Of a stretch of 64,000 bases of DNA, positions 6,305-55,276 are shown one piece after another; within the stretch, counting starts at the first letter, position 1, and every line of letters begins with the position of its first letter. The notes beneath the pieces are model-generated. The model did not search any database. It was not told the origin of the DNA and was given only the letters and a program-made list of their open reading frames with translations. The stretch covers positions 1,023,078 through 1,087,077 of the forward strand of contig JBFLYH010000002.1 of NCBI GenBank assembly GCA_040756875.1, in the 5' to 3' direction. The DNA is from a candidate division FCPU426 bacterium. Its GTDB lineage: Bacteria; Oederibacteriota; JAAXVQ01; JAUVAV01. A program made the position numbers and the translations under genes.

Positions 6305-9046
6305 ATGTCCCGCGTTTCCTGGGGCGCCCTTAGCCTGGGCGCCCTTTTCCTGATCGGCCAGGTGGTGATACTGGCCGGAAATCCGCCGCTGGGAGGCGCT
6401 GCCAGCCTCCTGGCCGTGGCGCTCAGCCTCGGCTGGTGGCTGAAGCGTTCCGGCAAGCCCATTGCGCCCTGGGTCGCGGTGGCGGCCCTGGGCTGTGCGG
6501 CCTGGGCCCAGGCCCTGGTGAAAGCCGAGCCCAAGGACGCGCTGTGGCTGTTTATTTTGTCCGGCCTGCTGCTTTTTTTGGCCAAGCCCGCCGGGCTTGG
6601 CTGGAAAGAGGACGGCGCCGTGCCGTCCGGGCGAGCGCCCCTGGAAAAATGGGAACCCTGGTTTGTGCTGGGGTTGCTGGGGCTGGCAATAGTGACGCGC
6701 TTCGTACCGATCAACGGTTTTCCCTTTGGGTCCATCGCCGAGGAAGCCCAGCACGTGCCCGTGCTCGAGGGCGCCATGGCCAGCCAGGTTTACGTGCCGC
6801 ATTTCACGCACGGCAATATGGGCACACCCACCCTGATGAGCTACCTCGGCGCGGCCGCGTCCCGCGTTTTTGGCCGGCACATCAACAGCTACCGCATGGG
6901 CGTGGAGTTGTTCAGCGTCTTTTCCATCCTGGCCTTCTATTTCACAGCCCGGCGGGCAAGTTCGCCTTTCACGGCCGCGGTCACCAGCATCCTCTATTCG
7001 GTCTCCCTCTTGCACCTCACGCTCTCGCGGCGTTTTTATCCCTACATCGTGATTTTTTTACCCGTGGTCCTGGGCTGGGGGCTGTGGCTGGAGGGGCTGG
7101 CGCGCAGGCGCTGGTACTGGTTTTTCCTGGCCGGCCTGGCCGCGGGATTCAGCCTGCACGGCTATGAACCGGGCCGGGGTGTGTTTCTGATCTTTTTAGC
7201 CTGGGCTGCCTGGATGTGGCTGGCCCACCGCCCCCGCCGGATGGTGAAGGGACTCACCCCAGGGGACTCCCTGCAGCCGGCTTCGCCTGGCCCCGCCCTG
7301 CCCTCTGGCCGGGACTTCGCCCTGTTTTGGGTGGGGTTCCTCATAGTCGCCGGTCCGATTTTTTATCATATGAGCGTGCATTGGGACAATTACTGGCACT
7401 ATGTGGCCAGCAAGAACCCCAACCGCACGCAAACACTGGCTGCGTATGTCAAGCAGGTGTGGTCCTTGGTCGGCGTTTATGCGCACTTGTTCCAGGTTAA
7501 GAGCGACGGCAATTACACGATGTACACCACCTACCAGCCCCTGCTTGACCCAGTGACCAGCGCCCTGTTCGGGCTGAGCTTCTTTTTCGTGCTGGCCCGC
7601 GCCTGGCAGCCCATGCCTTCCTTTGTCCTGCTGTTCTTTTTCGCCGGCCTGGCGCCTGCGCTGATCGGCGGCGGGGAGGAGCATCCGACCGCCCGCCGCA
7701 CCTGCCTGGCCACCCCGGCCATCTATCTCATCATAGCCTTGGGCCTGGAGCGCCTGCGGCTGCTTTTCCGTCAGGGCCTGCCGTCCTGGGGGCGCAGGAT
7801 CTTGCTGGCCGCGGCTGTTTTCCTGACCGCGGGCGTGGCCGCCTATTCGCTGCATTACTACTTCTTCGTGTTCGGCGACTCGCCCGAGGCGCGGACCGGG
7901 TATTGCTGGCGCGGCTTGAAGATCGCCCAGGCCCTGGACGCCCATCCCAAGGCGTACAGCCGGCTGCAACCCCTGTTGTATCACGAACAGATTTGGGTGC
8001 TGGCCAAGCACCCCGGACAACCCGGGCTAGTGCCCACCCAGGAGGACCTGCTGGTGCTGGCGCCTGACCAGGACCAGCAGCTCTTTTTGGAAGGCTACAT
8101 GGAGCCGACCCTGCCGTTTTGGCGCTCCCAATTTCCCAACGCGCAGGTCACCGTTTACCGGGAGAAATATCCGGACCGGCCCTTTTGCGAGACCTGGCCG
8201 TACTTCAAACTGGGCACGGATCCCAACAATCCGGCCACGTACTTGATCCAGATCAACATTCCCAGGCAGGACGTGGCGTTTTTCCAAATGCTGGTGGACG
8301 CCACCACCGGACAGCACCTGCCGGTCTGGAATCCCGAGTTCGGAGCCGGACTGGTTCCCGGCCAGCGCCTGCGCCTGGCCGGCGCGGTGGTCACCCATCC
8401 TGGAGCGGTTTATTCCTGGAAACTGGGCTGGCTTGGCTGGCAAATAACCGTGGACAAAAAACCCGCGGAGTGGAGCCAAGACATCCCTCTGGACCAGGGC
8501 GTGCACTATTTCGAAATTTCCGGGCCGGTTCCTGCCGGCTGCGAGGGTCCGCTGCCCCTGGTGGTGCTGGAAAACGGCCGCAATGTGCAGCGCCTGGGGA
8601 GCGTGGTGGGGTTGCCCGCCAGGCAGGGCATGCTGGCCGAATACCGCAACAGTCCCAGCCGCTGGGACGGGCCGGCTGAGGTTACCAGCCAAAAGCTATT
8701 CGGCCAGGAGCGATTCTACAGCGTACCTCCGGGCTTTGGGCTGCCGTTGTCGGCGATTTACCGCTGCCGGCTGCAGGTGCCCGAGGACGGCGAGTATTCT
8801 TTCGAGACCAAGCATTTTTCGCGCTGCCGGCTGCTGCTCGACGGCCGCGAAGCTTTCAATAACTTCAACAATGTACAGGCGCCCGTGATCACGCCCATGG
8901 CCCTCGCCGCCGGCAAGCCGGTTGCGCTTGAAGCCCAGTTCATCGTCGAGGGCGAAACCCTGACCATGACTTTTCAGCTTTTTTACCGCCGTCCGGGCCA
9001 AAAACAGGCGCAATGGGTGCCCATGGAGTGGCTCCGGTTGCCTTGA
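6305..9046 (+). CDS. ArnT/PMT-like (GT-C fold) membrane glycosyltransferase with C-terminal PA14-like domain
   Basis: Multi-TM N-terminal half with an acidic EE loop after an early TM. C-terminus GMLAEY...LQVPEDGEYSF...RLLLDG resembles PA14. Architecture matches 27553-30093. Confidence 0.7.
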   Translation: MSRVSWGALSLGALFLIGQVVILAGNPPLGGAASLLAVALSLGWWLKRSGKPIAPWVAVAALGCAAWAQALVKAEPKDALWLFILSGLLLFLAKPAGLGWKEDGAVPSGRAPLEKWEPWFVLGLLGLAIVTRFVPINGFPFGSIAEEAQHVPVLEGAMASQVYVPHFTHGNMGTPTLMSYLGAAASRVFGRHINSYRMGVELFSVFSILAFYFTARRASSPFTAAVTSILYSVSLLHLTLSRRFYPYIVIFLPVVLGWGLWLEGLARRRWYWFFLAGLAAGFSLHGYEPGRGVFLIFLAWAAWMWLAHRPRRMVKGLTPGDSLQPASPGPALPSGRDFALFWVGFLIVAGPIFYHMSVHWDNYWHYVASKNPNRTQTLAAYVKQVWSLVGVYAHLFQVKSDGNYTMYTTYQPLLDPVTSALFGLSFFFVLARAWQPMPSFVLLFFFAGLAPALIGGGEEHPTARRTCLATPAIYLIIALGLERLRLLFRQGLPSWGRRILLAAAVFLTAGVAAYSLHYYFFVFGDSPEARTGYCWRGLKIAQALDAHPKAYSRLQPLLYHEQIWVLAKHPGQPGLVPTQEDLLVLAPDQDQQLFLEGYMEPTLPFWRSQFPNAQVTVYREKYPDRPFCETWPYFKLGTDPNNPATYLIQINIPRQDVAFFQMLVDATTGQHLPVWNPEFGAGLVPGQRLRLAGAVVTHPGAVYSWKLGWLGWQITVDKKPAEWSQDIPLDQGVHYFEISGPVPAGCEGPLPLVVLENGRNVQRLGSVVGLPARQGMLAEYRNSPSRWDGPAEVTSQKLFGQERFYSVPPGFGLPLSAIYRCRLQVPEDGEYSFETKHFSRCRLLLDGREAFNNFNNVQAPVITPMALAAGKPVALEAQFIVEGETLTMTFQLFYRRPGQKQAQWVPMEWLRLP

Positions 9047-9324: not shown

Positions 9325-12300
9325 ATGGTACTGCGCAAGCGGCAAAGCTCCATAACCCTGTTGCTTTCCTTATTATTAGTCATACCGCCCGGTACGCTGC
9401 AAGCCAAGAGCCAGCCCGAACCAACCGAGCCTTCCACCCGCCCTGAGCGCCTGACTCCCGAAATCGTCGTCCTGGTGCCGGATGTGCTGGATTCGGCCAA
9501 GACCTTAGCCAATGCCAGGCAGCGGTTGATCAAACGCGGCTTGAAATCCCGGGACGTGGTCGTGACCGCTGAACAGCCGGGGTTCAGTCGTTCGGGCGGG
9601 TTGGACCAGCAGGCGCGGCAGCTGGAAAAAATCCTGATTGATCTGAAAATCCGTCAGCCAAGCGCACGGTTGCACGTGGTCGGCAAGGGCAGCGGCGGCT
9701 TGGTGGTCCGGCAGTACCTGGCGAGGCAGGCGGGCCTCGGGCCACAGGCAGTGACCGTGGAAAGCGCGGTCGGCTTGGGCGTGCCGCACCACGGCCGCTG
9801 GTGGGCGGGCGTGGCCAGCAGCCTGGGCGCCAAGTCGCAGGCCCTGGCTGACCTGGCGCCGGGTTCTGCGTTTTTAAACCAGCTTAACCAGCCCATTGAA
9901 GCGCGCCGGGCCGAGGTCAGGCGCGTGCAGGGTGTGCTGGCCAGCCTGCGCCAGCCGAACCTGCGGGCCCAGGTCCGGGGCAAACTGTCAGCCATTGAAA
10001 GCCAGCAGGCGGACATACGCGAATCCGTGGAGCGGGCTCTGCACTTTCCACAGCGCGCCGCTTTGAGTCCTGATGACCAGAAACGCCGCCAGGAAGCGGA
10101 ACGGTTCAAGGCGAAACTCAACCGCCTTCCGGCCGCGGAAGCGCGGCACCAAGCCGCGTCCCTGGCCGCTGCCAGCCAGCGCCAGGTTCTGGCCGCGGAA
10201 AAATTCGCAGGACAATCCCTCCCTTGGCAGGCGCCGGCCCGGCAATCAACCCGTACGGCCGAAGAGGCCCTGGTTCGCGCCCAACAAACCCTGCTGGAAA
10301 AACTGTCCCAGCCCCAGGCCAAGTTGCCGGCCGGATTCCAGCCGCCGAAGACCCAAGCCCAGCCAGGGCAATGGCTTTCCGTTTTGCAGGCCCTGGAGCA
10401 CAGCAGCCAGGCTGCGGCTGAAAAAGCCGCCAGCCAGGCTGGCGGCCTGCAAAAACAATTCGCGTCCCTGGATTTCGAAGGGCTCGAAGCCCGTTTAAAA
10501 AACGCCGGCACGGAGGCAGCGGGGCGCCTGCCTGCCGACTTGCTGCAACTCAAGCCCCAGCACATGGCCAGGGACCTGGAGCGCGCCGCGCGCAAATATG
10601 AAACCGCGGCTGCGTTGGAAGCTGCCTGGCGGCAGAGCCAGGCCGGCAAAGAGCAGTGGCTCGATCAAGTGGAGCGGTTGACCCAGGTCGCGGCCAAACA
10701 GCAACTGGCCCGGGACCTGGCGGCGTACGCCGCAAAGGCCGGACTTGCGCCGGCCCGGCTGCGCGCCGGGGCGGCTGAGGCAGGGGATTTGCCCGAGCGC
10801 GCCCAGGCCGCGTACCGCGCGTGGCGCCAGAAGGAAGCCGCCCTGGACCAGGCTTTTGCCGCGGCCAAGGAACAGGGGTTGGAAACAATCGTCAAACCCG
10901 AGTTTTGGAAACTGCGCGAGCGGACGGCCCAGGTGGCTGAGCGCACCCACCAGGCGATTGCGCGCGACAGCCTAAAAGCCTGGGAAGGACTGGCAGCCCT
11001 GCGCCTGGGGCCCGCGGCCAAGGAACAGGCCATGTTCGCCCAGGCCACTGAGCACCGCCTTAACCGCGAACTGGCAGCCTGGAAGCAGGAACTGCTGAAG
11101 CCGGATTGGGAAGCGCGCTTTTCGCAGGCTGCCTCGGCCCTGAACCGCAGCCTGCCGGCGGCAGAACAGGCCGGAGCCTTGAAGCAGGCTTTAGTACAGC
11201 AGGCAGGCGCTTTGCAGTCGGCTTTGGCCGCTGTTCGTTCCGACCTGGCGGCGCGTGAGCGGCAAAGCGCCTGGGAGCGGTTGGCAGCTGACAGCCGACA
11301 GGCAGCTGCGCAGTTGCTGCAGCAACAAGCGGATCATGGCTTCGTGGCCGACGCCCTGGCTGCCGGCAATTTCCTGGCCGCCGGCAGAAAACAGGAACAG
11401 CAACGCCTGCTGGACCTGGTCAGGCAGAATGATCCGGCTGCCAGCCGTCAGGTGGCGGTGCTGGCCCAATTGGCGCTTCAGCGCCACGGGCTGCAGTCCA
11501 GGCTGCTGGAGACCGGCGGCCTGGATGCAGGGCCTGCCCCGCAGTTGCTGGAGCGGATCGCCGGGCAAGCCAAGGCCCTGGGGCTGAAGACCGCCCTGCC
11601 ACCCAAAGCAATGGAGCACCTGGCCCAGGCCCAGGAGGAGCGGCAAAACCGCTGGAAACAACTGAACACCAGCTGGAAGCGGCAGTGGTCGCAGGCTGTC
11701 CAGGAGGACCGCGAACGCAACCAGCCGGCCAAAGCCTGGTCAGCCTGCCAGGAGACAGTTGCCGTCAGCCGCAGCCTGGCTGTGCTGGAAGACTGCTCGG
11801 CCGCGCTTTCGCAAATGAAATCCTGGCGGGATATGGGAACCCAAGCCTCGGGCCAGCAAGGCCGCTGCCAGGTCCTGGAGCAGCAGTTGTCCGCTTGGCT
11901 GCAAACGTCCGGACTTGGCAGCCGGATCCCGGCCGTGCAATCAGCCGCAGCCGCGGCCCAGGAAAAATTTGCGCCCGCGGCCTGGCAAGCCATTCTCAGC
12001 CAGTGCGGCCAGAAGCAGGAACAGGCAAGCGCCAGACTGCAAAACTTGAGGCGCGAACTGGCCAGGCAGCCTGAATGGATTTTGCCGCAAGTCGCCGGAG
12101 TGTCGGAACAGCTGGCTCAGGCAGCCCAGGACCCCAGCCGGATCAAGGGCTTGTTGCTCGAAATTTCCGGCTTGCGCGAGCAAACCCAAAAACACCTGAC
12201 ACAGGCGCGGGAACAAACCCTGGAGGCGCTCTGGCCCGGACAGGGCAAGGGGAAAGCTTCGGCCCTGGGCCAGGAGTTGAATCAAGTTTTATCCAGCCTG

Positions 12301-15300
12301 CAGGACTACCGCCAGTTGAGCCGGATGAATGCCCAGGCTGATACCCTGCAAGACCTGCTGTCAGCGAAAGCGCTGTTGTGGCAGCAACAGAATCTGCAAG
12401 CCCAAGGGCTCGGAGCGGTCAAGACCCTCGAATCCCTGCTCGCCCAAACAGCCGGAATCCCGGGCAAACCCTCCGGGCAAGTCTTCAGCCAGATCACCGC
12501 CACCCTGAGCCTGATGCAAAAGCTGACTGCCAACCAGATGCAATCCGCGGGATTGCTGCCAGGCCTTATGGATCGGGAGTGCGGGATGCCGGCCAAAGCC
12601 GCGCTCCAAAAAGAATGGAGAGCCTGGCTGGACGGGCAGTTTTCCGCCCAGCAAGGCTTGGATTGGGCCGGCGGGCAGCTTCAATTAAGCACAGTGCTGT
12701 CAAACCCAGGGGCAGGCTGGCGGCAACAGACCAACGCCCTGGCCACTGGCATGCTGGAGAATCTGGTGGACCAGGCGGCTGAGCGCCAGATCAGCCTGGG
12801 CCTGGCTGAAGTGCAGCGCTTGAGCAACGAGGCGCGGGAACTGCTTTCAGCGCCTGTGCGCCAATTGCGCGCCGAACTGGGGCAATTGGGGCTGTTGGAC
12901 CCAAGGCAGGATCAGGGGCCGGGCCTGAGTATCGTGTCCTGGGCGCAGCATTTCGTGCAGCAGGGCGTGGCCCAGGGCGTGGCGCAGGCCCTGGCCAGCC
13001 TGGAGCGGACGCAGGCCCAGTTCAGCAACCGCCTGGAGCGGGGCCTGCTGGAACTCGCGCGCGCCCAGGCCACCATGGCGATCAATGCCCTGAGCGGCCA
13101 ATACGCGGGCCTGGCCGTTGAGGTGAAGCGCCTGTGGGAGGGCGTTGGGCCTGAGGCCGGCGAAGCGTTGAACCTGCAGGGATTGCTGAACGTGGCCCAG
13201 GACCAGGAGTTTCTGCAAACCTGGCAGGAAGATATCTTCAGCAAACTGGTGGCGGAGAATCCCTTGCAGGCTGACCTGGGACGGCTGGGCCAGGTTGCCT
13301 CCTCGCTTCAGGCTTTGATCGACCAGCCGGCCAGCCAGCTCGGCGACTGGCTGGTGAGGAGCGGAGTGAACCTGGGCGTGGAGCGGCTGCAGTCCCTGCA
13401 GGCCGAAGCCCAGAAGCTGCTGCACGAGGCTATGACCACGGGCGCGGTCAACGAGCTGCGGACGCGCCTGAATGCCGTTCTGCTCAAGTTGGACCAGGAA
13501 GCAGGCCGCTTGAGCCGTTATCTGGACCAGACCCTGGCCAAGCTTCCGTCCGGAGTGGTTCCCGCGGGCTTGCGGGACGCGCTGCGGGAATTGCGCGACC
13601 TGCCCGGCACCCTGGCTGCCGGGATCGACGGCCTCATGCAGGACGTGGAGAGTTACCTTGCCAACCAGGTGCTGCAGTCCGGATTTGACCGCCTGAACGC
13701 CATGCTCAACCAGTACGGCGGACAGGCGTCCTTGTGGGCCGTGGGCGCCAGGCTGCAATTGTCGCTGACCGAGATTTCCAGCCTGGGCCAAACCGCGGTG
13801 GCGCAGTTGGAAGTGTCCCTCGCGGATCTGGGGACCGGAAATCTGACCGGTTTGTGGGAAAACGTGGCAGCCGGGCTCTCGGATTTCGGCGGGAACCTTC
13901 TGAACCTGCTGCAGGATTTCGTGGCTAGCGCGAGCCCGGTGGATTTGGGCGGGTTTCTCAACATCACGGGCCTGGCTGATTCGCTGTGGGCCTCGGCCGG
14001 CGAAGTGCTGGGGCAATTCACGGGCCTGTTCGAGCTACAGGTGCCAATGGCCGGCGATTGGTGGCAGGCAGACGAGCTGTGGCAGCAGTTGTCCGGCATT
14101 TTCAATGCGGAGAACTGGCAGCTTGATTTCTATCAGGCTGCGGACGGGTTCCTGCGCAATATCAGCGAAAACCTGGAAAACCTGCTCAACTCGGGTCTGG
14201 CCTGGGTGAACGACCGCTGGACAGAATACATGAACCAGGCGCGGGAATACTGGGACATCCTGGCCGGCGGGCCTGGCCGGTGGTGGGATGAACTGGCCAG
14301 CGGCCGCTGGGACCAGAGCCTGGGCAACCTGATGACGCAATACCTGCCGCCTGAATACCAGCCTGCTGTGAGCGCCCTGCAGCAGGTGCGCCTGGCGTTC
14401 AACGCGGACTTTCAGCTGAGCGCGGAGTGGATTACGAACATTTTGGACAACTTAAGCGCCTACCTGAGCGAGGACGCGCGGGCCGTGTACCAGCAGGTGC
14501 GCGAGTTATATGATACGGGCAGCGAATATTATTCCGCTGGCAGCGACATCCTCAACGCCATTTCGAGCGGGGATGTCACCAGCGTGCTGACCAACATCAG
14601 CCGCCTGGGCAGGTTTCATTTCAACACCGGCGGACAGATGTACCAGTGGGGCAAAGGCCGGGCCAATAAAAAAGGGAAGTACGACGGCCAGGCCCTGTCG
14701 GCTGCCAGCGAGGAAGAAGTGCTGGCAGCGTACGTCAATGCCCTCCCAGCCAGCATGCGCGAACAGGCCCTGCGGATGCTGGAAAACGGAACCCTGCCCG
14801 GCAGTAATCCCGAACGCGAAATCGACGTCGCGGACTACGACCCGGACGTGGACGGCCAGCCAGCTGGCCCGGCAGCCTATGAAGCCGCCCAGGAAGCTGA
14901 CGCGTCTGCCACTTTGCCAGATGTAGCAGCCGCATCCGCTTCGGATCGTCACCCCGGCGTGCCTGAAGCCGGGGTCCAGGAGCAAACTCCCCCCCGCAGG
15001 TCCCCCTCTTTGCCAAAGAGGGGGCGGGGGGAGTTGGATAGTGGCTTAGGCGGGAACGACAGTCAAGGCTCAACAACCGATGAGGGTGATGCTTCTGCTG
15101 CCGGCACCCAGCCAGGCGGTGAAGGCGAATCCGGCCCCCCAGACCTCGGCCCGCCGCGCATGTCCGGCGTGCCCACCCCGCCGCCTGTAAAGCAGAGCTT
15201 GTTGGATAAGATGAAAAATGTATACACCAACCTAAATCCAGTTGGATTATCCAAGAACGCCGCCCAGGCTGCCGCACCCGATGGGGCTAAAAAGGTGTCG

Positions 15301-16104
15301 AAGAAAGCTAAAGAAGCTTTGAAAAAAGCAGCCGATAAAACAGCAACTATGGCTAAAAATGCCAAAGATAATCTGGGTATGACGGTAGATGCTTTCAATA
15401 ATACCAAGGGTTTGGATAAAAAAACCAGAATAGCTCAGGGTGTTGGGACAGGGGTGTTGTCAGGGGATTTATTGGACAATCCCGACCCTGCTTCATCTGA
15501 ATTCGATCCAGATGGCCCGGCTATTTTATATATCAATGGGATGAGAACGCCGAATGATAAAGCTGAAAAAGATCAAAAAGCTTTATTTGATAAATGTGGC
15601 TATAAAGTTGCGCGGGTTCAAAACAACTCAAGTTTGGAAGGCGCAGGCGACATTGCTCAAATAGCTGGTCAAGAACAGGGCAACATTGATATCACGGCAA
15701 TTCGCACGGCAGCTATGATTCGGAAAGGGCTTGAAAACCGTGATGAAATTTATGTGGTTGCGCACAGTCAGGGTACCAAAACATTTGAACAGGCATTGGC
15801 GCTATTAACCCCCGAAGAACGTAAGAAAATCAAGTTTCAAGGGTTTGGGGGAGAGCAGTATATTGATAAAAATAAATATGGATTGGCAAGTGCCCGTAAT
15901 GTGCGGCATGAAAAAGACCCTGTGCCAAAAGTCAATGACGCAAGGATAGGTAACAAAGATTGGGAAACCCTCGGGCATCAACCTGAAGTGAAACCGGGGA
16001 CAGAACCTGGGATTCTGGATTATCATGATTTTCGAAAGACTTATGTGGATAGCGTCGAATTGCCCGTTAATACGAACGCAACACGAAAGGAAGATGACCA
16101 ATGA
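9325..16104 (+). CDS. Large secreted polymorphic-toxin-like protein: degenerate N-terminal lipase fold, helical stalk, C-terminal alpha/beta-hydrolase
   Basis: 2259-aa ORF with a signal peptide (MVLRKR..LLLSLLLVIPPGTLQA). N-terminal VVGKGSGGLVVRQYL / GVPHHG / DLAPGSAFLNQLN. A/Q/L/E-rich coiled region. C-terminal YING..VVAHSQGT..DPVP..YHDF in AT-richer DNA. Confidence 0.7.
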   Translation: MVLRKRQSSITLLLSLLLVIPPGTLQAKSQPEPTEPSTRPERLTPEIVVLVPDVLDSAKTLANARQRLIKRGLKSRDVVVTAEQPGFSRSGGLDQQARQLEKILIDLKIRQPSARLHVVGKGSGGLVVRQYLARQAGLGPQAVTVESAVGLGVPHHGRWWAGVASSLGAKSQALADLAPGSAFLNQLNQPIEARRAEVRRVQGVLASLRQPNLRAQVRGKLSAIESQQADIRESVERALHFPQRAALSPDDQKRRQEAERFKAKLNRLPAAEARHQAASLAAASQRQVLAAEKFAGQSLPWQAPARQSTRTAEEALVRAQQTLLEKLSQPQAKLPAGFQPPKTQAQPGQWLSVLQALEHSSQAAAEKAASQAGGLQKQFASLDFEGLEARLKNAGTEAAGRLPADLLQLKPQHMARDLERAARKYETAAALEAAWRQSQAGKEQWLDQVERLTQVAAKQQLARDLAAYAAKAGLAPARLRAGAAEAGDLPERAQAAYRAWRQKEAALDQAFAAAKEQGLETIVKPEFWKLRERTAQVAERTHQAIARDSLKAWEGLAALRLGPAAKEQAMFAQATEHRLNRELAAWKQELLKPDWEARFSQAASALNRSLPAAEQAGALKQALVQQAGALQSALAAVRSDLAARERQSAWERLAADSRQAAAQLLQQQADHGFVADALAAGNFLAAGRKQEQQRLLDLVRQNDPAASRQVAVLAQLALQRHGLQSRLLETGGLDAGPAPQLLERIAGQAKALGLKTALPPKAMEHLAQAQEERQNRWKQLNTSWKRQWSQAVQEDRERNQPAKAWSACQETVAVSRSLAVLEDCSAALSQMKSWRDMGTQASGQQGRCQVLEQQLSAWLQTSGLGSRIPAVQSAAAAAQEKFAPAAWQAILSQCGQKQEQASARLQNLRRELARQPEWILPQVAGVSEQLAQAAQDPSRIKGLLLEISGLREQTQKHLTQAREQTLEALWPGQGKGKASALGQELNQVLSSLQDYRQLSRMNAQADTLQDLLSAKALLWQQQNLQAQGLGAVKTLESLLAQTAGIPGKPSGQVFSQITATLSLMQKLTANQMQSAGLLPGLMDRECGMPAKAALQKEWRAWLDGQFSAQQGLDWAGGQLQLSTVLSNPGAGWRQQTNALATGMLENLVDQAAERQISLGLAEVQRLSNEARELLSAPVRQLRAELGQLGLLDPRQDQGPGLSIVSWAQHFVQQGVAQGVAQALASLERTQAQFSNRLERGLLELARAQATMAINALSGQYAGLAVEVKRLWEGVGPEAGEALNLQGLLNVAQDQEFLQTWQEDIFSKLVAENPLQADLGRLGQVASSLQALIDQPASQLGDWLVRSGVNLGVERLQSLQAEAQKLLHEAMTTGAVNELRTRLNAVLLKLDQEAGRLSRYLDQTLAKLPSGVVPAGLRDALRELRDLPGTLAAGIDGLMQDVESYLANQVLQSGFDRLNAMLNQYGGQASLWAVGARLQLSLTEISSLGQTAVAQLEVSLADLGTGNLTGLWENVAAGLSDFGGNLLNLLQDFVASASPVDLGGFLNITGLADSLWASAGEVLGQFTGLFELQVPMAGDWWQADELWQQLSGIFNAENWQLDFYQAADGFLRNISENLENLLNSGLAWVNDRWTEYMNQAREYWDILAGGPGRWWDELASGRWDQSLGNLMTQYLPPEYQPAVSALQQVRLAFNADFQLSAEWITNILDNLSAYLSEDARAVYQQVRELYDTGSEYYSAGSDILNAISSGDVTSVLTNISRLGRFHFNTGGQMYQWGKGRANKKGKYDGQALSAASEEEVLAAYVNALPASMREQALRMLENGTLPGSNPEREIDVADYDPDVDGQPAGPAAYEAAQEADASATLPDVAAASASDRHPGVPEAGVQEQTPPRRSPSLPKRGRGELDSGLGGNDSQGSTTDEGDASAAGTQPGGEGESGPPDLGPPRMSGVPTPPPVKQSLLDKMKNVYTNLNPVGLSKNAAQAAAPDGAKKVSKKAKEALKKAADKTATMAKNAKDNLGMTVDAFNNTKGLDKKTRIAQGVGTGVLSGDLLDNPDPASSEFDPDGPAILYINGMRTPNDKAEKDQKALFDKCGYKVARVQNNSSLEGAGDIAQIAGQEQGNIDITAIRTAAMIRKGLENRDEIYVVAHSQGTKTFEQALALLTPEERKKIKFQGFGGEQYIDKNKYGLASARNVRHEKDPVPKVNDARIGNKDWETLGHQPEVKPGTEPGILDYHDFRKTYVDSVELPVNTNATRKEDDQ
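14948..15060. repeat. Nested palindromic repeat element inserted in-frame in the 2259-aa gene
   Basis: Outer element gtcaccccggc..gccggggtccag ... tggatagtggcttaggcgggaacgac encloses an approximately 51-bp palindrome at 14985-15035 (core ccccctctttg-c-caaagaggggg). Confidence 0.6.
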
Positions 16105-16601
16105 CCACCGAAAAAAAACTTGCTATAGTTGGGATAGTTGCCCTATGCGGGCTTATAGTATTTCAAATATGGTCACATGGCACAACCAAGACTATTAATG
16201 ATGATCCAATATACGGGAAATTAGTTGGAAAAACATATGAAACAAGAACAGATTTGTATTTATCTCAAGATCGCCAGTCTGCCAATTATTCAATTAAAAT
16301 TCCGGGAGTCTTATATCCTGAAATAAAAGAAATAAAAGAGTATCCGCATGGTACTGCGCACAATATTATTCACAAATTAATTCCTTCTAAAACTAGAATT
16401 AAAATTAGCAATGTTGTTTTAACTAACGTGCCTTTCCGAGGGACAGACCTCTGGCTGAAAGCCAGATTTGAAGACTCAAGCATTTATGAAGGAGAAGTTG
16501 ATGCTACATTTATCTCCGACTTTAGCAGCTATCACGAAAAAATGGATTCCAAATACGTCACCGAAATCACGCCTGAGGGGGAACCGGTTAATGCCAAATA
16601 A
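16101..16601 (+). CDS. Small membrane-anchored protein, candidate cognate immunity protein
   Basis: 166 aa with one N-terminal TM. ATGA overlap with the upstream gene's stop. AT-rich like the hydrolase tip. No family recognised. Confidence 0.6.
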   Translation: MTTEKKLAIVGIVALCGLIVFQIWSHGTTKTINDDPIYGKLVGKTYETRTDLYLSQDRQSANYSIKIPGVLYPEIKEIKEYPHGTAHNIIHKLIPSKTRIKISNVVLTNVPFRGTDLWLKARFEDSSIYEGEVDATFISDFSSYHEKMDSKYVTEITPEGEPVNAK

Positions 16602-17532
16602 AACCAAAATATTCTTTGCCAGTCTTTGCTGCCTTATTCCTTTAACTGCCTGCTTGCAACAGGATAAAATAGTCAACAAGCTCGCTGGTATCTACGATGG
16701 CCTTAGTTACACTTCCCCTTATGGCTTCTTCTCCACGCACCTCAAGGATTGGGCAGATCTCAAAAGCGTAAAAGACGGCCAGGAAAACAACGGCGCCACA
16801 ATGGTGCTGAACTTTCAGGATAAATCCATGAACGAATATCAAATCGCAGCTTCTTTGGCTAATCCGGAGCTCAATGCCCACGACTTGGTCACCCGCATGG
16901 TGGCCAAAGGACAGGCAGAAGGCAAGAACGTGGTGGCAGCCACCACGGCTGACGGCGAGGAATGCCTGATGGCCCAATCCCTGCTGAAAGAAAAAGATTC
17001 AGACAAGGGCTATGCGCTGATGACGGTCATTTTTCTACGAAAAGGCACGATATTCGATTTAGGCATCAAAACCCACCCGGAAAAGGAACCGGAAAAAGCC
17101 GCGGAGTTGGCCAAACAGTGCTTCCGGGATCTATGGAACCGGTCGGCCTTGCGCGGGCAAGTGCAGGATTTTGAAAAATATCCCGAAGATATTGATCCCC
17201 GCGTGCCGGTGGTTACCCTGGCAGCCGGCCGGGTGGCTGTGGAAATGGGACTGGAAGCAGTGATTGAACGGGGCAAGAAGGCAATTGTCAGGATAATAGG
17301 CAAGGGCAGTGAAGGGCCGATGACCTTGAGCCTGGGCATTGCCGCCAAAGAGAACGAAATCATCACGACTGAAGCAGTATCCAGCAAAGCCAATGACATG
17401 AAGACCGTAAGCCAGATGCAGAGCGAGTTCTATCGCAAATTCGGCGAAGCAGTTGCTGCCGAGCAACTCACTATAAACCGTTCCAATGCCTTTGACCCGG
17501 ACCTTGCGCAATTGCCGGTAAAGGGGAAATAG
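16591..17532 (+). CDS. Hypothetical lipoprotein
   Basis: MPNKTKIFFASLCCLIPLTAC lipobox (LTAC). Start moved from the track's 16468 to ATG 16591, which has a GAGGGGG RBS-like sequence. Confidence 0.7.
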   Translation: MPNKTKIFFASLCCLIPLTACLQQDKIVNKLAGIYDGLSYTSPYGFFSTHLKDWADLKSVKDGQENNGATMVLNFQDKSMNEYQIAASLANPELNAHDLVTRMVAKGQAEGKNVVAATTADGEECLMAQSLLKEKDSDKGYALMTVIFLRKGTIFDLGIKTHPEKEPEKAAELAKQCFRDLWNRSALRGQVQDFEKYPEDIDPRVPVVTLAAGRVAVEMGLEAVIERGKKAIVRIIGKGSEGPMTLSLGIAAKENEIITTEAVSSKANDMKTVSQMQSEFYRKFGEAVAAEQLTINRSNAFDPDLAQLPVKGK

Positions 17533-17624: not shown

Positions 17625-18218
17625 ATGATGATTATGCCGAGAAAAACCATTGTGGTTTTTATAATGGCCTTTTTTACATCTTTCCCGCTCCATGCCGCCA
17701 CTTCCGACCAGCATGGTCTGGAGCCAGTGGTTGTCAATGCCGGGGGATCGACCCTTTCCGGCAATGGCCGGCAGTTACTGGATTCCATAGGCGAATCCAT
17801 TATTAACCAAACCTGGGGAAGCTCCTTCTCGATCCAAGCCGGTTTTTTCAGCGATTATTTTATTCTGCCTCCCACGCCGACCGTAACTCCCACGGTAACA
17901 GCCACCAGCACGCCCATACGCGGTTTTGGCGGAGAATTGCTGAGCGAATCATGGGTTTATGCCGCCCCCAATCCTATCCGGGGATTTCGCGCCAATATCG
18001 TCTATCACCTGGCTGAACCGGCGGAAGTGGAGATCAAGGTATTTACGGTCAACAATGACCTGGTTATTTCCAAGCATTGGGATAATGTTGCGGCTGGCGA
18101 AAACCATTGGTATTGGAACACCTCAGGAATATCCAATGGGGTATATTTGCTGTTGGTTAAAGCCAAGGGGCAGGGCAGGAGCACGATTATAAAGAAAAAA
18201 ATCGCATTAGTGCATTGA
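17625..18218 (+). CDS. Small secreted protein with Thr/Pro linker and T9SS-CTD/FlgD-Ig-like C-terminal domain
   Basis: Signal peptide; GG..LSG...LLDSIGE...IQAGF domain; PTPTVTPTVTAT linker; YAAPNP...W...SNGVYLLLV...KKIALVH tail. Confidence 0.7.
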   Translation: MMIMPRKTIVVFIMAFFTSFPLHAATSDQHGLEPVVVNAGGSTLSGNGRQLLDSIGESIINQTWGSSFSIQAGFFSDYFILPPTPTVTPTVTATSTPIRGFGGELLSESWVYAAPNPIRGFRANIVYHLAEPAEVEIKVFTVNNDLVISKHWDNVAAGENHWYWNTSGISNGVYLLLVKAKGQGRSTIIKKKIALVH

Positions 18219-18225
18219 TATAATA

Positions 18226-18255
18226 ATTCCCCTCCTGTCCAGCAGGGAGGGGAAT
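18226..18255. other. 10-bp-stem intergenic hairpin (attcccctcc / ggaggggaat)
   Basis: Perfect inverted arms at 18226-18235 and 18246-18255 just after the stop codon; no U-tract. Confidence 0.5.
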
Positions 18256-18316
18256 GTAGAAGAAAGGGAAGGGGCCAAGTACGTAAACCATTTGTAGTTT
18301 AAACAGGAGGCGGGAA

Positions 18317-19150
18317 ATGAAAAAGATAGCAGGAGTATTGGCAGTATTGCTCGGTCTTTCAGCGCAAATAGCGCTGGCGGACATTCCGGGAACCATCAAT
18401 TACCAAGGCCGGCTGACAGATACTGCCGGTAATCCGGTGGCAAACGGAACGTATGGGGTAACCTTTGCGCTGCATTACACGGCCGAAGGCAACAGCCCAA
18501 CAGGTTGGAGCGAAGTGCAAAACGTGGAAACAAAAGGTGGATATTTTATTATTGCCCTGGGCAGCCAGAACTCGCTGAGTGGCTTGGGTTTCAATTACCC
18601 GTATTATTTGGAGATCCATGTTGCAGGTGACGCCCAATCCATGAGCCCAAGGCAGCTTCTGAGCAGTGTGCCGTATGCCATGAGGGCGAGGGAAGCTACG
18701 CATGCTACTGCGGCCGATAGTGCTACAACTGCGAATAACGCGAGCAATCTAGGCGGGTTTGCTGCAAATACTTTTATTAGGAATATTGCAAATTCAGTAT
18801 CTAATACAAACCTTCAATCAGGTTCAGTTACGCAGGACAAGGCGCAGTTCGCACCAGCGGTTTCTTTCAATGGCGCATTAATATCTTATCCGAAAATAGC
18901 AGCTGGTTATATTGATACCAATGAAAGCGGGGAAGCTAATGTCGCTTTTTCGGGGATTACTTTTTCTCAGCCTCCGGTAATATCATGTGTTATATATCAT
19001 ACCAATCCCGCTTATATCAATCCATCGGTCGTTACAATCGAGAGCGTCTATTCGACGGGGTTTTACGCTAGATCATGGTATCAGAATGGGTCCGGCACAC
19101 ATGTCCAGACGGGGCCACTTAGGTTTTCGTATATTGCTATTGGACAATAA
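18317..19150 (+). CDS. Secreted fibre/adhesin-like protein (INYQGRL...SVPYA family) with beta-rich C-terminal tip
   Basis: Signal peptide ending ALA; IPGTINYQGRLTD; PRQLLSSVPYA; A/T-rich stalk; F..PP.I...TGF...FSYIAIGQ tip. AGGAGG RBS. Confidence 0.65.
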   Translation: MKKIAGVLAVLLGLSAQIALADIPGTINYQGRLTDTAGNPVANGTYGVTFALHYTAEGNSPTGWSEVQNVETKGGYFIIALGSQNSLSGLGFNYPYYLEIHVAGDAQSMSPRQLLSSVPYAMRAREATHATAADSATTANNASNLGGFAANTFIRNIANSVSNTNLQSGSVTQDKAQFAPAVSFNGALISYPKIAAGYIDTNESGEANVAFSGITFSQPPVISCVIYHTNPAYINPSVVTIESVYSTGFYARSWYQNGSGTHVQTGPLRFSYIAIGQ

Positions 19151-19159
19151 ACAATAATT

Positions 19160-21055
19160 ATGAAATTGAATTCAACTGACATTAAGTATTGGGAAATACT
19201 ATTTTGGGGTCTGGTGTTACTCAGCTTAAAAACATACGCCGTTCCTGTGACTCCTGGGTTGGATCCGTCGTGGAACTTGGGCATGAATTTAATTTCTGCC
19301 TATGGAATTCAATGCGGCAAAGAAGTGTTTTTCAATTATGGACCACTTTTCCCATTAATCAACCTGTTGCCAGTAAATCCAATTTATGAAACATGGGTAA
19401 TCATCACCTGTCTCATTCAGGGGATATTTTTCTATAGCATTTGGTCGTTAGTTAAAAATAATGATGCAAAAACACGGGAGTATACTGTTGGTGGAATCAT
19501 ATTCCTTCTTCTAATTAGTTCGTCAGTTGGGATTGAAAACATATTAGTATTCACACCAATAATCTGCTTGCTCAATTATCACGAGAACGACAAAGCTAGA
19601 TGGCTCTGGATTGCCGCGGGAGTTACTTCGATATCTGCGTTAACGAAGACTATTCCGGGTTTGTGTGGATTTGGAGCGGTTGTTTTATATAGCATTTACA
19701 GGATTATTACCGATAGAAACGGGAGTTGGAAAATAGGCATTTTTGGCACAATATTAATCTATCTCACGATGTGGTTGCTTATTTATCGTGATTTCGGCGG
19801 GGTGATTGGTTATTGGAAAGGTGCCTTGGAATTATCATCGGGTTTTTCGACGGCAATGGCTTTGTATTCAAACAATGATTGGGTTTTCTTGGGGCTTTTT
19901 GTGTTATCTCTTGTGGTGATGCCATGGCTATTAAAGAACTCAAAGATATGGTTGCTTTTTTTACTGGCGTCGCCAATGATATTTTATGAATGGAAGCATG
20001 GAATTGTACGTCAATGTGCCCCAAGCATCGCATCTGCGATCGTATTTATGTATACATTTACATTGTTTATAGCGATCTATTATTTTGTTCAGAAACGACG
20101 TGTAACTTGCAAATTAACGGTTATTTTACTGCCACTGATATTTTTATCTGTTTTTTATCAAAGAACGTATCACGAGTCTTGGTTGACTGTGCTCCAATAC
20201 TCTATATTCCAGCCTATACATCAAATGCAAAGGCATCTACTGATAAATTGGCCAAATAAAAGCAAAACGTTAAAGGAGTCTCGACGGAATGTAGAAAGAT
20301 ACGCGGTTGATAAAATAGTGCGAGATAAAATTGGCAGTGAAACTGTTGACTGTTATCCTTGGGAAGTAACATATATATTCGCTAATGATTTTAAATGGAA
20401 ACCACGGCCAGTATTTCAAGCTTATACAACATATACTCCGTGGTTACAAAAGCAAAACGCCGAATACCATCGATCAAAAACATCGGCTCGTTATTTACTC
20501 TGGCATTATGATCACGAAGATGAACCGTTTATTAGCGGAAAGGGATTGGTGGAGATTGACAATAAATACTTATTGAACACCGAACCCGCCGCATTATATC
20601 AAATAATCAGTATTTATTCGCCGGTTTATCAAAGTGAAAGATTGATATTGTTTGAAAAAAGCGAAGAAAATAGCATTCGAAGGGTAATCGAGAATAACAA
20701 ATATGAAGCCAAATGGGGTGAGTGGATTGCCGTATCCACAAATCCTGGTGAAATTATTCGAGCGCAAATAAATGTAAAGAGGCATTTAATAGGACAAATA
20801 CGGAAGTTTCTATATAAAGACGGCGATTGCCATATTTATTATAAAACGGATGAAAATGAAGAAATCAAATACAGATTGAATATATTAAATGCGTCTGAAG
20901 GTATTTGGGTTTCCCCTTTGATAAACAAAATGGACAAACCCAACGATGGCAGACATATTAAAGAAATAAAATTGGTTAAATCGCCTAATACGTATTTTGA
21001 AGACCTATACTCAATTCGTTGGGAACGAATAATTATTCAAAAGAGAGACTTGTGA
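19160..21055 (+). CDS. Polytopic membrane protein, putative GT-C-like glycan-modifying enzyme
   Basis: GLDPSW and FNYGPL motifs, roughly 10 TM segments, then a soluble domain with PRPVFQAY. Strongly AT-rich DNA. Confidence 0.55.
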   Translation: MKLNSTDIKYWEILFWGLVLLSLKTYAVPVTPGLDPSWNLGMNLISAYGIQCGKEVFFNYGPLFPLINLLPVNPIYETWVIITCLIQGIFFYSIWSLVKNNDAKTREYTVGGIIFLLLISSSVGIENILVFTPIICLLNYHENDKARWLWIAAGVTSISALTKTIPGLCGFGAVVLYSIYRIITDRNGSWKIGIFGTILIYLTMWLLIYRDFGGVIGYWKGALELSSGFSTAMALYSNNDWVFLGLFVLSLVVMPWLLKNSKIWLLFLLASPMIFYEWKHGIVRQCAPSIASAIVFMYTFTLFIAIYYFVQKRRVTCKLTVILLPLIFLSVFYQRTYHESWLTVLQYSIFQPIHQMQRHLLINWPNKSKTLKESRRNVERYAVDKIVRDKIGSETVDCYPWEVTYIFANDFKWKPRPVFQAYTTYTPWLQKQNAEYHRSKTSARYLLWHYDHEDEPFISGKGLVEIDNKYLLNTEPAALYQIISIYSPVYQSERLILFEKSEENSIRRVIENNKYEAKWGEWIAVSTNPGEIIRAQINVKRHLIGQIRKFLYKDGDCHIYYKTDENEEIKYRLNILNASEGIWVSPLINKMDKPNDGRHIKEIKLVKSPNTYFEDLYSIRWERIIIQKRDL

Positions 21056-21193
21056 CAATAATTCTTCTGATGAATCCCACTTTTACGCTCGCTCTTGGTA
21101 TCAACCAAACAATGACCGCTTCCAACAGAAGGGACCGATTTATTTTTGGTGGATAGCCGTCGGCAAAAGGTGAAAACCGAAAGGACGAAAGGC

Positions 21194-22195
21194 ATGAAGC
21201 GGATTATTGTTGGTATAATAGGATTAATGATGCTCGTCATATGTATTCGCGGGTTTTGGTATTATCCATTGTTTCGAAAACCGCCTATTTTGGAAATGAT
21301 CTCCGACGTCCCGTGTAATATTCCTTATATAAAACTTAAAAATCAAAAAGGTATTTTAAAAAGATATTTTGTTGTTATTGGCGATAAAAAGGCTTCCTTT
21401 CCAGATGCGGGGCAAAAAGGCTGGTCAGAATGGGCAAGTAGTCATGAGATATATATCGATAGCGTGAAAAATTGGATAAAGGTATTCATTGATGAAAAGT
21501 GGTTGATATTCAGAAAAAAAACAGCGTACCTATTCTACCAGCAACCTGGCGGGTTCAATCAATACACAGTATTATTCCGTCATAGATATCAGGGTGACAA
21601 TGAAAAACTTAAAAATAAATACAATATTTATTTTATAGGGGATAGCATCACCCGGGGATTGTATGCGATAAATGAAAGCAATAGTTATTCAGCGCTAGTG
21701 AACGCGAAAGCGGGCATGAAAGGTACGCCTGTAAAATATGCAATTAAAGGGATTGGGATTAGTGACATAGATAAAACTCAAATATTATCGGATTTAACTA
21801 AAAATCAGCCAGAATTAATTATTATCGAGTTGGGTACAAATGATTGGAAGGAAATGGATATAGAGAAATTCAAAAGGAAGTATGAGTCAATGCTCTCGGC
21901 GATAGTCGAAAACGCCAAAGGGACGAAGACAGTTTTACTTGGCCTTTGGGGTGGCTATAAAGCTCTGCCATATGACGCTGTCATTTATGATATAGCGAAG
22001 CACTATCAATATGAATATGTATATTTGGAAGATATTTATGAGGAAAGCGAATATCATAATGAGGAAAACACCGCAACTTCTTTTGGACCTGCCGACTTTT
22101 ACCATCCGTCAGATAAAGGTCATAGGGAAATTGCTAATAGGGTTATATCGGCGATTGTATCGCTTGAAAATAAGCCTTCGCAAGTTCAACGATGA
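21194..22195 (+). CDS. SGNH/GDSL hydrolase (possible O-acetyl esterase/transferase) with N-terminal anchor
   Basis: FIGDSIT (block I), ELGTND (block III), DFYHPS (block V). ATG 21194 directly precedes the hydrophobic anchor. Confidence 0.85.
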   Translation: MKRIIVGIIGLMMLVICIRGFWYYPLFRKPPILEMISDVPCNIPYIKLKNQKGILKRYFVVIGDKKASFPDAGQKGWSEWASSHEIYIDSVKNWIKVFIDEKWLIFRKKTAYLFYQQPGGFNQYTVLFRHRYQGDNEKLKNKYNIYFIGDSITRGLYAINESNSYSALVNAKAGMKGTPVKYAIKGIGISDIDKTQILSDLTKNQPELIIIELGTNDWKEMDIEKFKRKYESMLSAIVENAKGTKTVLLGLWGGYKALPYDAVIYDIAKHYQYEYVYLEDIYEESEYHNEENTATSFGPADFYHPSDKGHREIANRVISAIVSLENKPSQVQR

Positions 22196-55106: not shown

Positions 55107-55276
55107 TAAGCTGAAATTTATTAAACTGGCATTTAATGTGCCGAAAAAGAAAGTTGTTACATATATGTCTGCGTCATTGAACAAATGCCAGCATCACCCG
55201 GCATGGTCCGGGTTGAAAGATAGATCGAATAGCCAAGAAGGTCGGGCGGACCGCTTGGTTTAATGAGGTGAGGACA

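Follow-up and report, generated by a model that had tools for sequence, protein, structure and literature searches.

Does a giant protein of no known family, encoded by an uncultured groundwater bacterium, carry a toxin at its C-terminus, and if so, by what route would such a toxin reach its target? The question is raised by an open reading frame (9325..16104, + strand; 2259 residues) in a 64,000-nucleotide stretch from a candidate division FCPU426 bacterium (GenBank assembly GCA_040756875.1, contig JBFLYH010000002.1, positions 1,023,078 to 1,087,077), which is referred to in the following as the window and from whose first letter coordinates are counted. In a sequence-only reading, the protein had been taken for a new class of polymorphic toxin, composed of a secreted helical carrier and a swapped hydrolase tip with linked immunity genes. 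The comparisons described below make it quite likely that the gene and its downstream neighbours constitute a polymorphic toxin-immunity system, and with rather good confidence this system would be built on an undescribed, Sec-exported, all-helical carrier, whereas the specific picture of delivery is held with much lower confidence than the toxin-immunity reading.

The C-terminal cassette and its partner genes

Three features by which polymorphic toxins are recognized, i.e., a constant part followed by variable C-termini, a downstream gene matched to the tip, and the presence of the toxin domain on proteins of other trafficking types, are found here. Comparison of the window's own genome (G000) with a relative of the same genus (G001) and with further relatives in the genera g1, g2, and g3 revealed four types of tip behind homologous stalks in three genera (g1, g2, and g3), each with its own small gene. 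Tip A, found in the window and in G001, is partnered by a protein of 163-166 residues that has a single anchor at its N-terminus, and next comes a lipoprotein of 311-313 residues. Tip B (G008, G002, G010, and the locus G003a) is partnered by an overlapping gene for a protein of 108-111 residues with three hydrophobic segments, tip B' (G003b; 27-30% identical to B) by a divergent 108-residue protein of the same kind, and tip C (G003c) by a 181-residue lipoprotein. None of the four types of candidate immunity protein is cytosolic: each is anchored or embedded in the membrane or is a lipoprotein. Homologous stalks with differing C-termini and differing downstream genes are what the sequence-only reading had expected of such a system, rather than one C-terminus common to all homologues.

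The homology of the stalks stops at a proline-rich junction motif (consensus DLGPPRxG[IV]P[TM]PP), in which P1944, G1948, P1950, and P1953 are invariant in all six full-length homologues, and a drop in G+C content starts at the same place in two genomes. In the window, the G+C content is 0.646 over 9325-15150, 0.452 over 15151-16104, and 0.369 over 16101-16601, with 0.602 for the genome, and in G001 it falls at the same place from 0.677 to 0.438 and then to 0.366; the abrupt turn to AT-richer DNA that had been pointed out previously is thus located at about 15150 (from 0.65 to 0.45). In three relatives of lower G+C content (loci L010, L011, and L007 of G008, G002, and G003, respectively), the stalk gene has a G+C content of 0.50 vs 0.35-0.39 in its surroundings, so that there the stalk's own composition is distinctive, and the values for the tip and for the immunity genes are 0.41 and 0.29-0.31.

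The exchangeable cassette accordingly appears to start at DLGPPRxGxPxPP and to comprise a pretoxin linker, the tip, and the immunity gene or genes. The linkers are of two types. Type 1 is that of the window and of G001 and has two instances in G003; type 2, characterized by LKEGAKTWxDPRR repeats, was found in G004, G003c, and three genomes of g2. Each linker type was seen with each of the tips A and B, namely tip A with type 1 in the window, tip B with type 2 in genus g2, tip B with type 1 in G003a, and tip A with type 2 in P0009, the first 100 residues of which match the linker of G004 (E 3e-14).

A DNA island of about 160 nucleotides covering the junction motif is 86-92% identical among three G003 loci that have differing tips. 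On L029, a metagenome contig, the stalk sequence agrees with the tip-C-bearing stalk of G003 over 1142 nucleotides (97.5% identity), then diverges from it and passes, now at 100% identity, into the linker found ahead of tip B. The G003 genome has three tips behind near-identical junctions, two of which start at contig ends, and L029 ties one of them to a second copy of the stalk. This pattern is characteristic of tips being exchanged through recombination, which would take place at the conserved junction. At positions 1589-1596 of L029, compared with the contig L013, the linker runs via an 8-nucleotide overlap into the tip-B cassette in reverse complement, beginning at the cassette's far end, so that the tip and the immunity gene face the stalk gene, the reading frame of which stops just behind the linker. 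No inverted repeat was detected on the flanks of this inverted join, which could be either a chimera of the assembly or a genuine inversion, and it was rejected as evidence of an invertible switch.

The partnership of tip A with the gene that follows it, imm1, can be traced beyond the phylum. In the window, the TGA stop of the toxin gene shares the sequence ATGA with the start of imm1 (CAATGACC), in line with the earlier observation of a stop overlapping the start of a small AT-rich gene, and the 3' end of imm1 overlaps in turn the ATG at 16591 of the next gene, imm2; because of these successive overlaps, the three genes are considered to be translationally coupled. A TTG at 16468 had previously been taken as the start of the second downstream gene, but ATG 16591 is the most likely start instead, giving a 313-residue lipoprotein with a lipobox LTAC, for which Pfam gave no match. 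The imm1 product has one hydrophobic segment (residues 3-28), and in G001 its homologue comes after the tip. A scan of species-representative genomes, based on a 12-sequence tip alignment and one narrow pattern, yielded 4 loci from 333 pattern matches, which belong to G001, two Elusimicrobiota, and one Candidatus Obscuribacterium (Melainabacteria-like). In all three loci from other phyla a relative of imm1 adjoins the tip, directly after it in L032 (tblastn E 3e-13) and L033 (E 4e-7) and just upstream of it in L031 (E 1e-6), where the reading frame after the tip is a paralogue of the upstream relative (46% identical, E 1e-50). Six proteins of the imm1 family align lengthwise, have the motifs GK-Y-T, FP, and a C-terminal KF..EYVEE in common, and all possess a leader or a lipobox; no relative of imm2 was detected in L031-L033 by tblastn. 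Judged from these sequences, imm1 travels with tip A across phyla. Between the window and G001, identity amounts to 55% in the stalk, 47% in the tip, 26% in imm1, and 80% in imm2, and the first three values fit a rapid coevolution of tip and imm1, as in a toxin-immunity arms race. A prediction of the complex of tip A with mature imm1 returned a score of 0.01, which speaks neither for nor against binding.

The tip itself had been credited in the sequence-only reading with a plausible Ser-Asp-His triad, and the AHSQG motif at 15760-15774 and the motifs DPVP and YHDF, from which the triad was proposed, are indeed present. The last 225-330 residues of the protein matched nothing in Pfam, NCBIfam, or the PDB at the sequence level, and a Pfam search at E<=10 gave two chance matches and no other family. 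An exhaustive phmmer search of 1.84 billion representatives returned 196 matches at E<=1e-3, 91 at E<=1e-10, and 8 at E<=1e-30. Among the homologues listed, which range from 89 to 3481 residues in length, the tip domain ends at most 40 residues from the C-terminus in 140 of 150, and it is C-terminal in 51 of the 57 that have at least 500 residues. When 33 long tip carriers were compared with Pfam, RHS repeats were detected in 10 of them, TPS together with Fil_haemagg_2 in one, and DUF6531, Ntox10, RES, and a teneurin-type YD shell in two each, with P0010, the first long carrier scanned, having no Pfam match. None of the 33 long carriers departs from the Ser in AHSQG, the Asp in DxVP, or the C-terminal His; among 58 shorter relatives the Ser is invariant (58/58), and the H, Q, and G of H-S-Q-G, the Asp, and the His are kept in at least 90%. 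Tip A is thus, on this sequence comparison, a polymorphic-toxin module common to RHS and CdiA-type carriers in other phyla.

The AlphaFold2 model of the tip, calculated from a 58-sequence alignment (pLDDT 90.1, pTM 0.88), places the Ser after strand 108-113 in a strand-Ser-helix elbow, the Asp after strand 155-161, and the His after strand 180-182. The best PDB matches in Foldseek were cutinases, dienelactone hydrolases, and Bacillus LipA (E about 2e-4, TM 0.35-0.5), and a second structural aligner matched the model with the rumen lipase 6nkc_B (Z 11.7, rmsd 3.2, 147 residues aligned), the cutinase 4oyl_A (Z 11.2), and other cutinases, carboxylesterases, and thioesterases (Z 10-11); all of the top structural matches are alpha/beta hydrolases. 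Since the model is confident, its fold is matched, and the triad is conserved, the tip is, as modeled, a minimal alpha/beta hydrolase in which the Ser2148-Asp2198-His2234 triad is intact, which bears out the earlier proposal. Contigs from biogas, sludge, and digester samples cover the tip together with imm1 (15323-16207 or 15323-16652) at about 89-91% identity; one of the runs in question is an RNA library, which is no proof of transcription.

Architecture and distribution of the carrier

Upstream of the junction, the constant part of the protein would consist of a signal peptide, an N-terminal domain, some 950 residues of low conservation, and a conserved Trp/Gly-rich module of ~700 residues (Table 1). 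The N-terminus, MVLRKRQSSITLLLSLLLVIPPGTLQA, holds the sole hydrophobic window of the protein (Kyte-Doolittle >1.2) and reads as a Sec signal peptide, in agreement with the sequence-only reading, and an equivalent basic-plus-hydrophobic leader is found in all nine aligned N-termini. Behind it lies a conserved hydrolase-like domain that had been overlooked previously, with weak Pfam matches under the cut-offs (Palm_thioest, E 0.0018; Hydrolase_4, E 0.0051). Its nucleophile elbow reads K-G-[ST]-G-G in all nine homologues, and because Gly stands at the position of the nucleophilic Ser the domain is probably noncatalytic. It is the second best conserved block of the protein, with residues 101-200 being 73% identical to G001 and 35-41% to the other genera.

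Table 1. Features of the toxin gene and of the two genes coupled to it, in window coordinates
Feature	Coordinates	Strand	Basis
Predicted Sec signal peptide, residues 1-27 (...TLQA/KS)	9325..9405	+	Hydrophobic window; predicted cleavage site
Alpha/beta-hydrolase-like N-terminal domain, residues about 45-200	9457..9924	+	Weak Pfam similarity, conserved elbow
Poorly conserved Ala/Gln/Leu/Glu-rich stalk, residues about 201-1146	9925..12762	+	Composition, windowed identity
Conserved C-terminal stalk module with Trp/Gly-rich core, residues 1147-1830	12763..14814	+	Conserved in relatives
Variable acidic Pro/Gly-rich linker, residues about 1831-1939	14815..15141	+	Composition; poor alignment
Junction motif DLGPPRMSGVPTPP, residues 1940-1953	15142..15183	+	Boundary of constant and exchangeable parts
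Pretoxin linker type 1, Lys/Ala-rich, residues 1954-2034	15184..15426	+	Comparison with relatives
Tip A, residues 2035-2259	15427..16104	+	Alpha/beta-hydrolase toxin domain (predicted)
Candidate triad of tip A: Ser2148; Asp2198; His2234	15766-15768; 15916-15918; 16024-16026	+	Conservation, model
imm1, candidate immunity protein, 166 residues, N-terminal anchor, extracytoplasmic body	16101..16601	+	ATGA overlap, homologues beside tip
imm2, 313-residue lipoprotein, translationally coupled to imm1	16591..17532	+	Lipobox LTAC

The conservation of the carrier, as judged from windowed identity, is highest in the N-terminal domain and in residues 1500-1800. The stalk proper (residues about 201-1146) is 37-64% identical to G001 and 11-26% to the other genera, and the C-terminal module reaches its peak in residues 1601-1700, with 78% identity to G001 and 32-57% to the other genera and with many Trp, Gly, and Pro columns invariant in the alignment. 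In blocks of 150 residues, residues 151-1350 contain 12-26% Ala, 8-16% Gln, and 8-18% Leu, Trp rises to as much as 6% in residues 1501-1650, and residues 1801-1950 contain 12% Pro, 13% Gly, and 16% Asp plus Glu, so that the Trp-rich stretch and the acidic, Pro-containing linker of the sequence-only reading are recovered. This linker aligns poorly and differs in length among the homologues. Of the earlier description of more than 1500 helical residues rich in Ala, Gln, Leu, and Glu, the composition holds; helices were predicted by AlphaFold2 for residues 1147-2010, and elsewhere, including residues about 201-1146, a helical stalk is suggested by composition. The model of residues 1147-2010, calculated from nine sequences, consists of helices throughout, with a mean pLDDT of 43.9 that is too low for a fold assignment.

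No significant match to the stalk was obtained from Pfam, NCBIfam, or PHROGs, the best match in a profile search of the PDB had an E of 0.069, and the best score in the ESM Atlas was 0.82, under the level of 0.9 taken as a lead. A tape-measure protein, an SMC protein, or a member of some other known family, any of which the sequence-only reading had named as a reason to abandon its proposal, was therefore not recognized in these libraries. The Pfam search likewise gave none of RHS, TPS, Fil_haemagg, PAAR, LXG, or VgrG, in keeping with the earlier statement that signatures of RHS/YD, FHA, VgrG, PAAR, and LXG are not visible.

The carrier gene is present in a single copy in G000, and its chromosomal position is conserved between G000 and G001. 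Counting G000, the carrier is matched in 10 of 41 related genomes, and the C-terminal stalk module in 9 of the 99 genomes of the phylum that were searched (family f1, 6/10; family f2, 2/4), with none of the 84 genomes from the other 21 families matching, so that the family is confined to one order of the phylum. Full or nearly full carrier genes of 2234-2459 codons were found in G001, G002, G004, G008, and G011, while in G005 the N-terminal part only is matched, by two N-terminal copies on different contigs. Among 151 proteins (P0007 and the 150 tip homologues listed), P0007 is the only one to share this stalk. Word-indexed protein searches with residues 1-1900 and with the six-sequence profile A3 returned the query and P0007 alone, but say little on distribution because they missed relatives that are 25-37% identical. 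A metagenome scan for the stalk gave one confirmed locus from 293 pattern matches. Most of the stalk (12800-14890) has no counterpart at 85% likeness among the contigs from the sludge and digester runs, a gap that carries no weight, and a pile-up of contigs at 14893-15053 was rejected as consisting of short unrelated contigs on a low-complexity stretch.

Delivery, rival explanations, and genomic setting

In the model favored here, Sec would export the protein, the N-terminal domain would hold or organize it at the cell surface, and the long helical stalk would present the tip to neighboring bacteria. The tip may then act as an esterase or lipase in the periplasm of the target or on its membranes, a site of action that is suggested because all four types of immunity protein are extracytoplasmic or membrane proteins. 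Outside the cytoplasm, imm1 would block the tip and thereby protect the producer and its kin, and new tips would be acquired by recombination at the conserved junction. A more specific version of this model, which is possible but held only tentatively, is that the stalk constitutes its own delivery device, i.e., a Sec-exported helical “spear” of ~1900 residues, which is anchored by the nucleophile-less hydrolase-like domain, breaches or docks onto the outer membrane of the neighbor with its Trp/Gly-rich module, and hands the tip into the periplasm. If true, this would amount to a route of contact-dependent inhibition independent of the type V, type VI, and type VII secretion systems (T5SS, T6SS, T7SS), of Rhs shells, and of phage-like machines.

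The delivery step is the only one in which the best surviving rival departs from this model. According to it, release of the protein occurs via a type II secretin, vesicles, or cell lysis, after which it acts as a very large colicin or pyocin, with the stalk serving in receptor binding and translocation and the tip as the killing domain. In its layout the protein resembles the colicins, the long helical body of which ends in the killing domain and whose immunity gene follows immediately; in addition, the genome encodes two secretins, and no contact-dependent machinery was found by the Pfam search or by a search of the 100%-complete genome for the T6SS sheath (PF05943) and Hcp (PF05638), for which the E. 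coli control was positive. (Genome searches for SprA_N and ShlB also gave no match, but neither did their controls, so these are uninformative.) However, colicins, which are three to four times shorter, are not known to have signal peptides, Pfam gave no match to a colicin or pyocin domain, no lysis gene is evident downstream, and the conserved N-terminal domain suits anchoring as well as it suits receptor binding, so a released bacteriocin is considered rather unlikely.

A second alternative arises from the genomic setting. The gene lies inside a conserved surface-glycan locus, the neighbors being GT2 and PMT_2 (GT-C type) glycosyltransferases, a DegT aminotransferase, and PA14 proteins, and the context is similar in related genomes; together with the single genome copy and the high conservation of imm2 (80%), this would be compatible with a housekeeping envelope protein, i.e., a structural or glycan-associated component of the cell surface, the esterase of which remodels the cell's own lipids or glycans with the small proteins as regulators or assembly partners. 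A housekeeping enzyme would, however, not be expected to be replaced by unrelated domains in sister genera, to have its catalytic domain in common with RHS and CdiA-type toxins, or to have a foreign G+C content together with its partner gene, nor would the partner be expected to accompany the domain on other carriers and in other phyla, all of which makes this explanation improbable. Finally, an origin from phage, by which the protein would be the remnant of a prophage or tailocin (tape-measure-like or associated with the tail, and with a lytic tip), can be set aside as hardly credible: great length, helicity, and richness in Ala, Gln, Leu, and Glu are also traits of tape-measure proteins, some of which have enzymatic domains, and weak viral look-alikes scoring 0.79-0.81 appeared below the threshold in the ESM Atlas, but PHROGs gave no tape-measure family for any of three stalks (no family for the proteins of the window and G008, and for that of G011 one match, E 0.0086, to a family of unknown function), a signal peptide is predicted, the neighbors are glycan and surface genes with no phage genes nearby, and the chromosomal position is conserved between G000 and G001.

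It has to be noted that several points weigh against the toxin-immunity reading as well, or at least against its details. No outer-membrane export route was identified, and no partner transporter gene lies beside the carrier gene. The carrier has no confident structure, the term “stalk” being based on helices predicted for residues 1147-2010 and on composition elsewhere. The fold match leaves the substrate of tip A unfixed, because alpha/beta hydrolases have many activities, and tips B, B', and C are read as toxins by their position and their covarying small gene because they have no recognizable toxin family: seven alternative C-termini gave nothing above chance in Pfam, and tip B had no match among proteins of 404-2000 residues (a lead from the ESM Atlas to a “putative RNAase”, with a score of 0.86, was not taken as evidence). 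In addition, imm2 is better conserved than the toxin, and its role is left unexplained by the toxin model. There is no spare cassette in G000 or G001, which have one copy each, and the genes of G004, G011, and G013 end at contig ends before the tip.

The surroundings of the locus offer some further observations. Two large membrane proteins, each with PMT_2 and a C-terminal PA14 (6305-9046 and 27553-30093), bracket it, and their counterparts in G001 occupy the same positions. Directly after the immunity genes, a low-G+C pair (17625-19150) encodes a protein of 197 residues with a weak match to Por_Secre_tail, the C-terminal domain of the type IX secretion system, and a fibre-like protein of 277 residues; the pair has several paralogues in the genome, one of them at C2:499354-500699. 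On the G003 contig L013, the cassette with tip B is likewise followed by a homologous pair, and in genus g2 a homologue of the fibre-like protein lies behind the cassette. The pair belongs to a four-gene stretch (17625-22195) with a G+C content of 0.41 vs 0.60 for the genome, which also includes a 631-residue protein with no Pfam match and a GDSL-type lipase/acylhydrolase (21146-22195). In G001, other genes lie between imm2 and DegT, and tblastn found no counterparts of them at that place in the window. Elsewhere in the window, an unrelated giant reading frame starts at 55268 (C2 of G000) and has no stop for at least 20 kb (>6600 codons); it possesses an N-terminal hydrophobic segment and long stretches rich in Glu, Pro, Thr, and Lys, with no Pfam match over its first 2910 residues and no BLASTP similarity to the 2259-residue protein.

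Relation to known systems

Comparison with the systems to which this one might belong suggests, by the tests run, that the carrier is not in the Tle, CdiA, Rhs, MafB, colicin, or tape-measure families. CdiA/CdiB and Rhs systems resemble it in that a constant carrier is joined, at a short conserved boundary motif, to a C-terminal toxin that varies and has its cognate immunity gene; the junction motif is similar in its role to VENN in CdiA or PxxxxDPxGL in Rhs, and the same tip domain is found on such proteins. Their carriers are built as a beta-helix or a YD shell, whereas the present one is predicted to be alpha-helical (residues 1147-2010), lacks TPS, Fil_haemagg, RHS, and PAAR domains, and has DLGPPRxGxPxPP as its boundary motif. 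With the Tle/Tli pairs of the T6SS it shares a serine-hydrolase toxin with a GxSxG-like elbow (here AHSQG), the envelope as the predicted target, and a periplasm-facing immunity protein encoded adjacently. It differs from these in that the tip has no Tle-family match in Pfam at E<=10, no T6SS sheath or Hcp gene was found in the genome, and the tip is a minimal hydrolase of ~200 residues fused to a carrier predicted to be Sec-exported. With respect to colicins and S-type pyocins, which likewise possess a long helical body with the killing domain at the C-terminus and the immunity gene behind it, the membrane-embedded type of immunity protein that accompanies tip B recalls the immunity to pore-formers, but the protein discussed here has a predicted signal peptide, is three to four times larger, has no matched colicin domain, and is encoded on the chromosome in a glycan locus.

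Closest in principle are Sec-dependent polymorphic toxins with lineage-specific N-terminal domains, which constitute a described category, e.g., MafB-N of Neisseria, Microscilla-N, and APD1/APD2, in the 2012 survey (Zhang et al. 2012, PMC3482391). As described there, they have in common with the present family a signal peptide followed by a constant, lineage-restricted N-domain, variable C-terminal toxins, an immunity gene directly downstream, and the absence of a T5SS, T6SS, or T7SS signature, and their N-domain has been proposed to anchor or cluster the toxin at the cell surface. In contrast to MafB, no MAFB_N/DUF1020 or other named domain was found here with Pfam, the N-domain being weakly alpha/beta-hydrolase-like, and there is no MafA-like partner gene upstream. 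The constant part of about 1900 residues is an order of magnitude larger than the N-domains of that group; it is also set apart by helices predicted for residues 1147-2010 with a helix-favoring composition before them, by a second conserved module just before the tip, and by the confinement of the family to one order of an uncultured phylum.

The tip, in turn, may be compared, by description only, with the table entry “Tox-AB hydrolase2” of the survey (PMC3482391), for which the motifs NG, [DE], [KR], HSxG, D, and H and, as carriers, T2SS (type II), T5SS, and T6SS proteins with FilH and RHS repeats are listed. The motifs of the tip fit this entry (I-N-G, D/E, HSQG, Asp2198, and His2234), as do the RHS and TPS carriers found here. 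The immunity protein listed in the entry is Imm-SUKH, vs an unnamed family of ~160-residue anchored proteins or lipoproteins here, and the taxa given there do not include this phylum, Elusimicrobiota, or Melainabacteria.

The claim of a new toxin class with an undescribed delivery architecture can therefore be kept in part: the carrier appears new, no description of it having been found in a limited literature search or in the portion of the 2012 survey considered, while the principle had already been described (PMC3482391). The novelty would thus lie in the carrier and not in the polymorphic-toxin principle, which is supported, despite the unmatched carrier, by the exchange of tips, the covariation of the immunity genes with them, and the presence of tip A on RHS and CdiA-type proteins. 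Polymorphic toxins are classed by their carriers, and each carrier has revealed a mechanism of secretion or delivery. The locus further adds the pair of tip A and imm1, which has no Pfam family, and three tips with membrane or lipoprotein partners, and its junction motif may be used for finding further cassettes in metagenomes. Since an unmatched carrier is here combined with a principle that has comparative support, the system would provide a defined and testable entry to competition among uncultured diderms that lack a T6SS.

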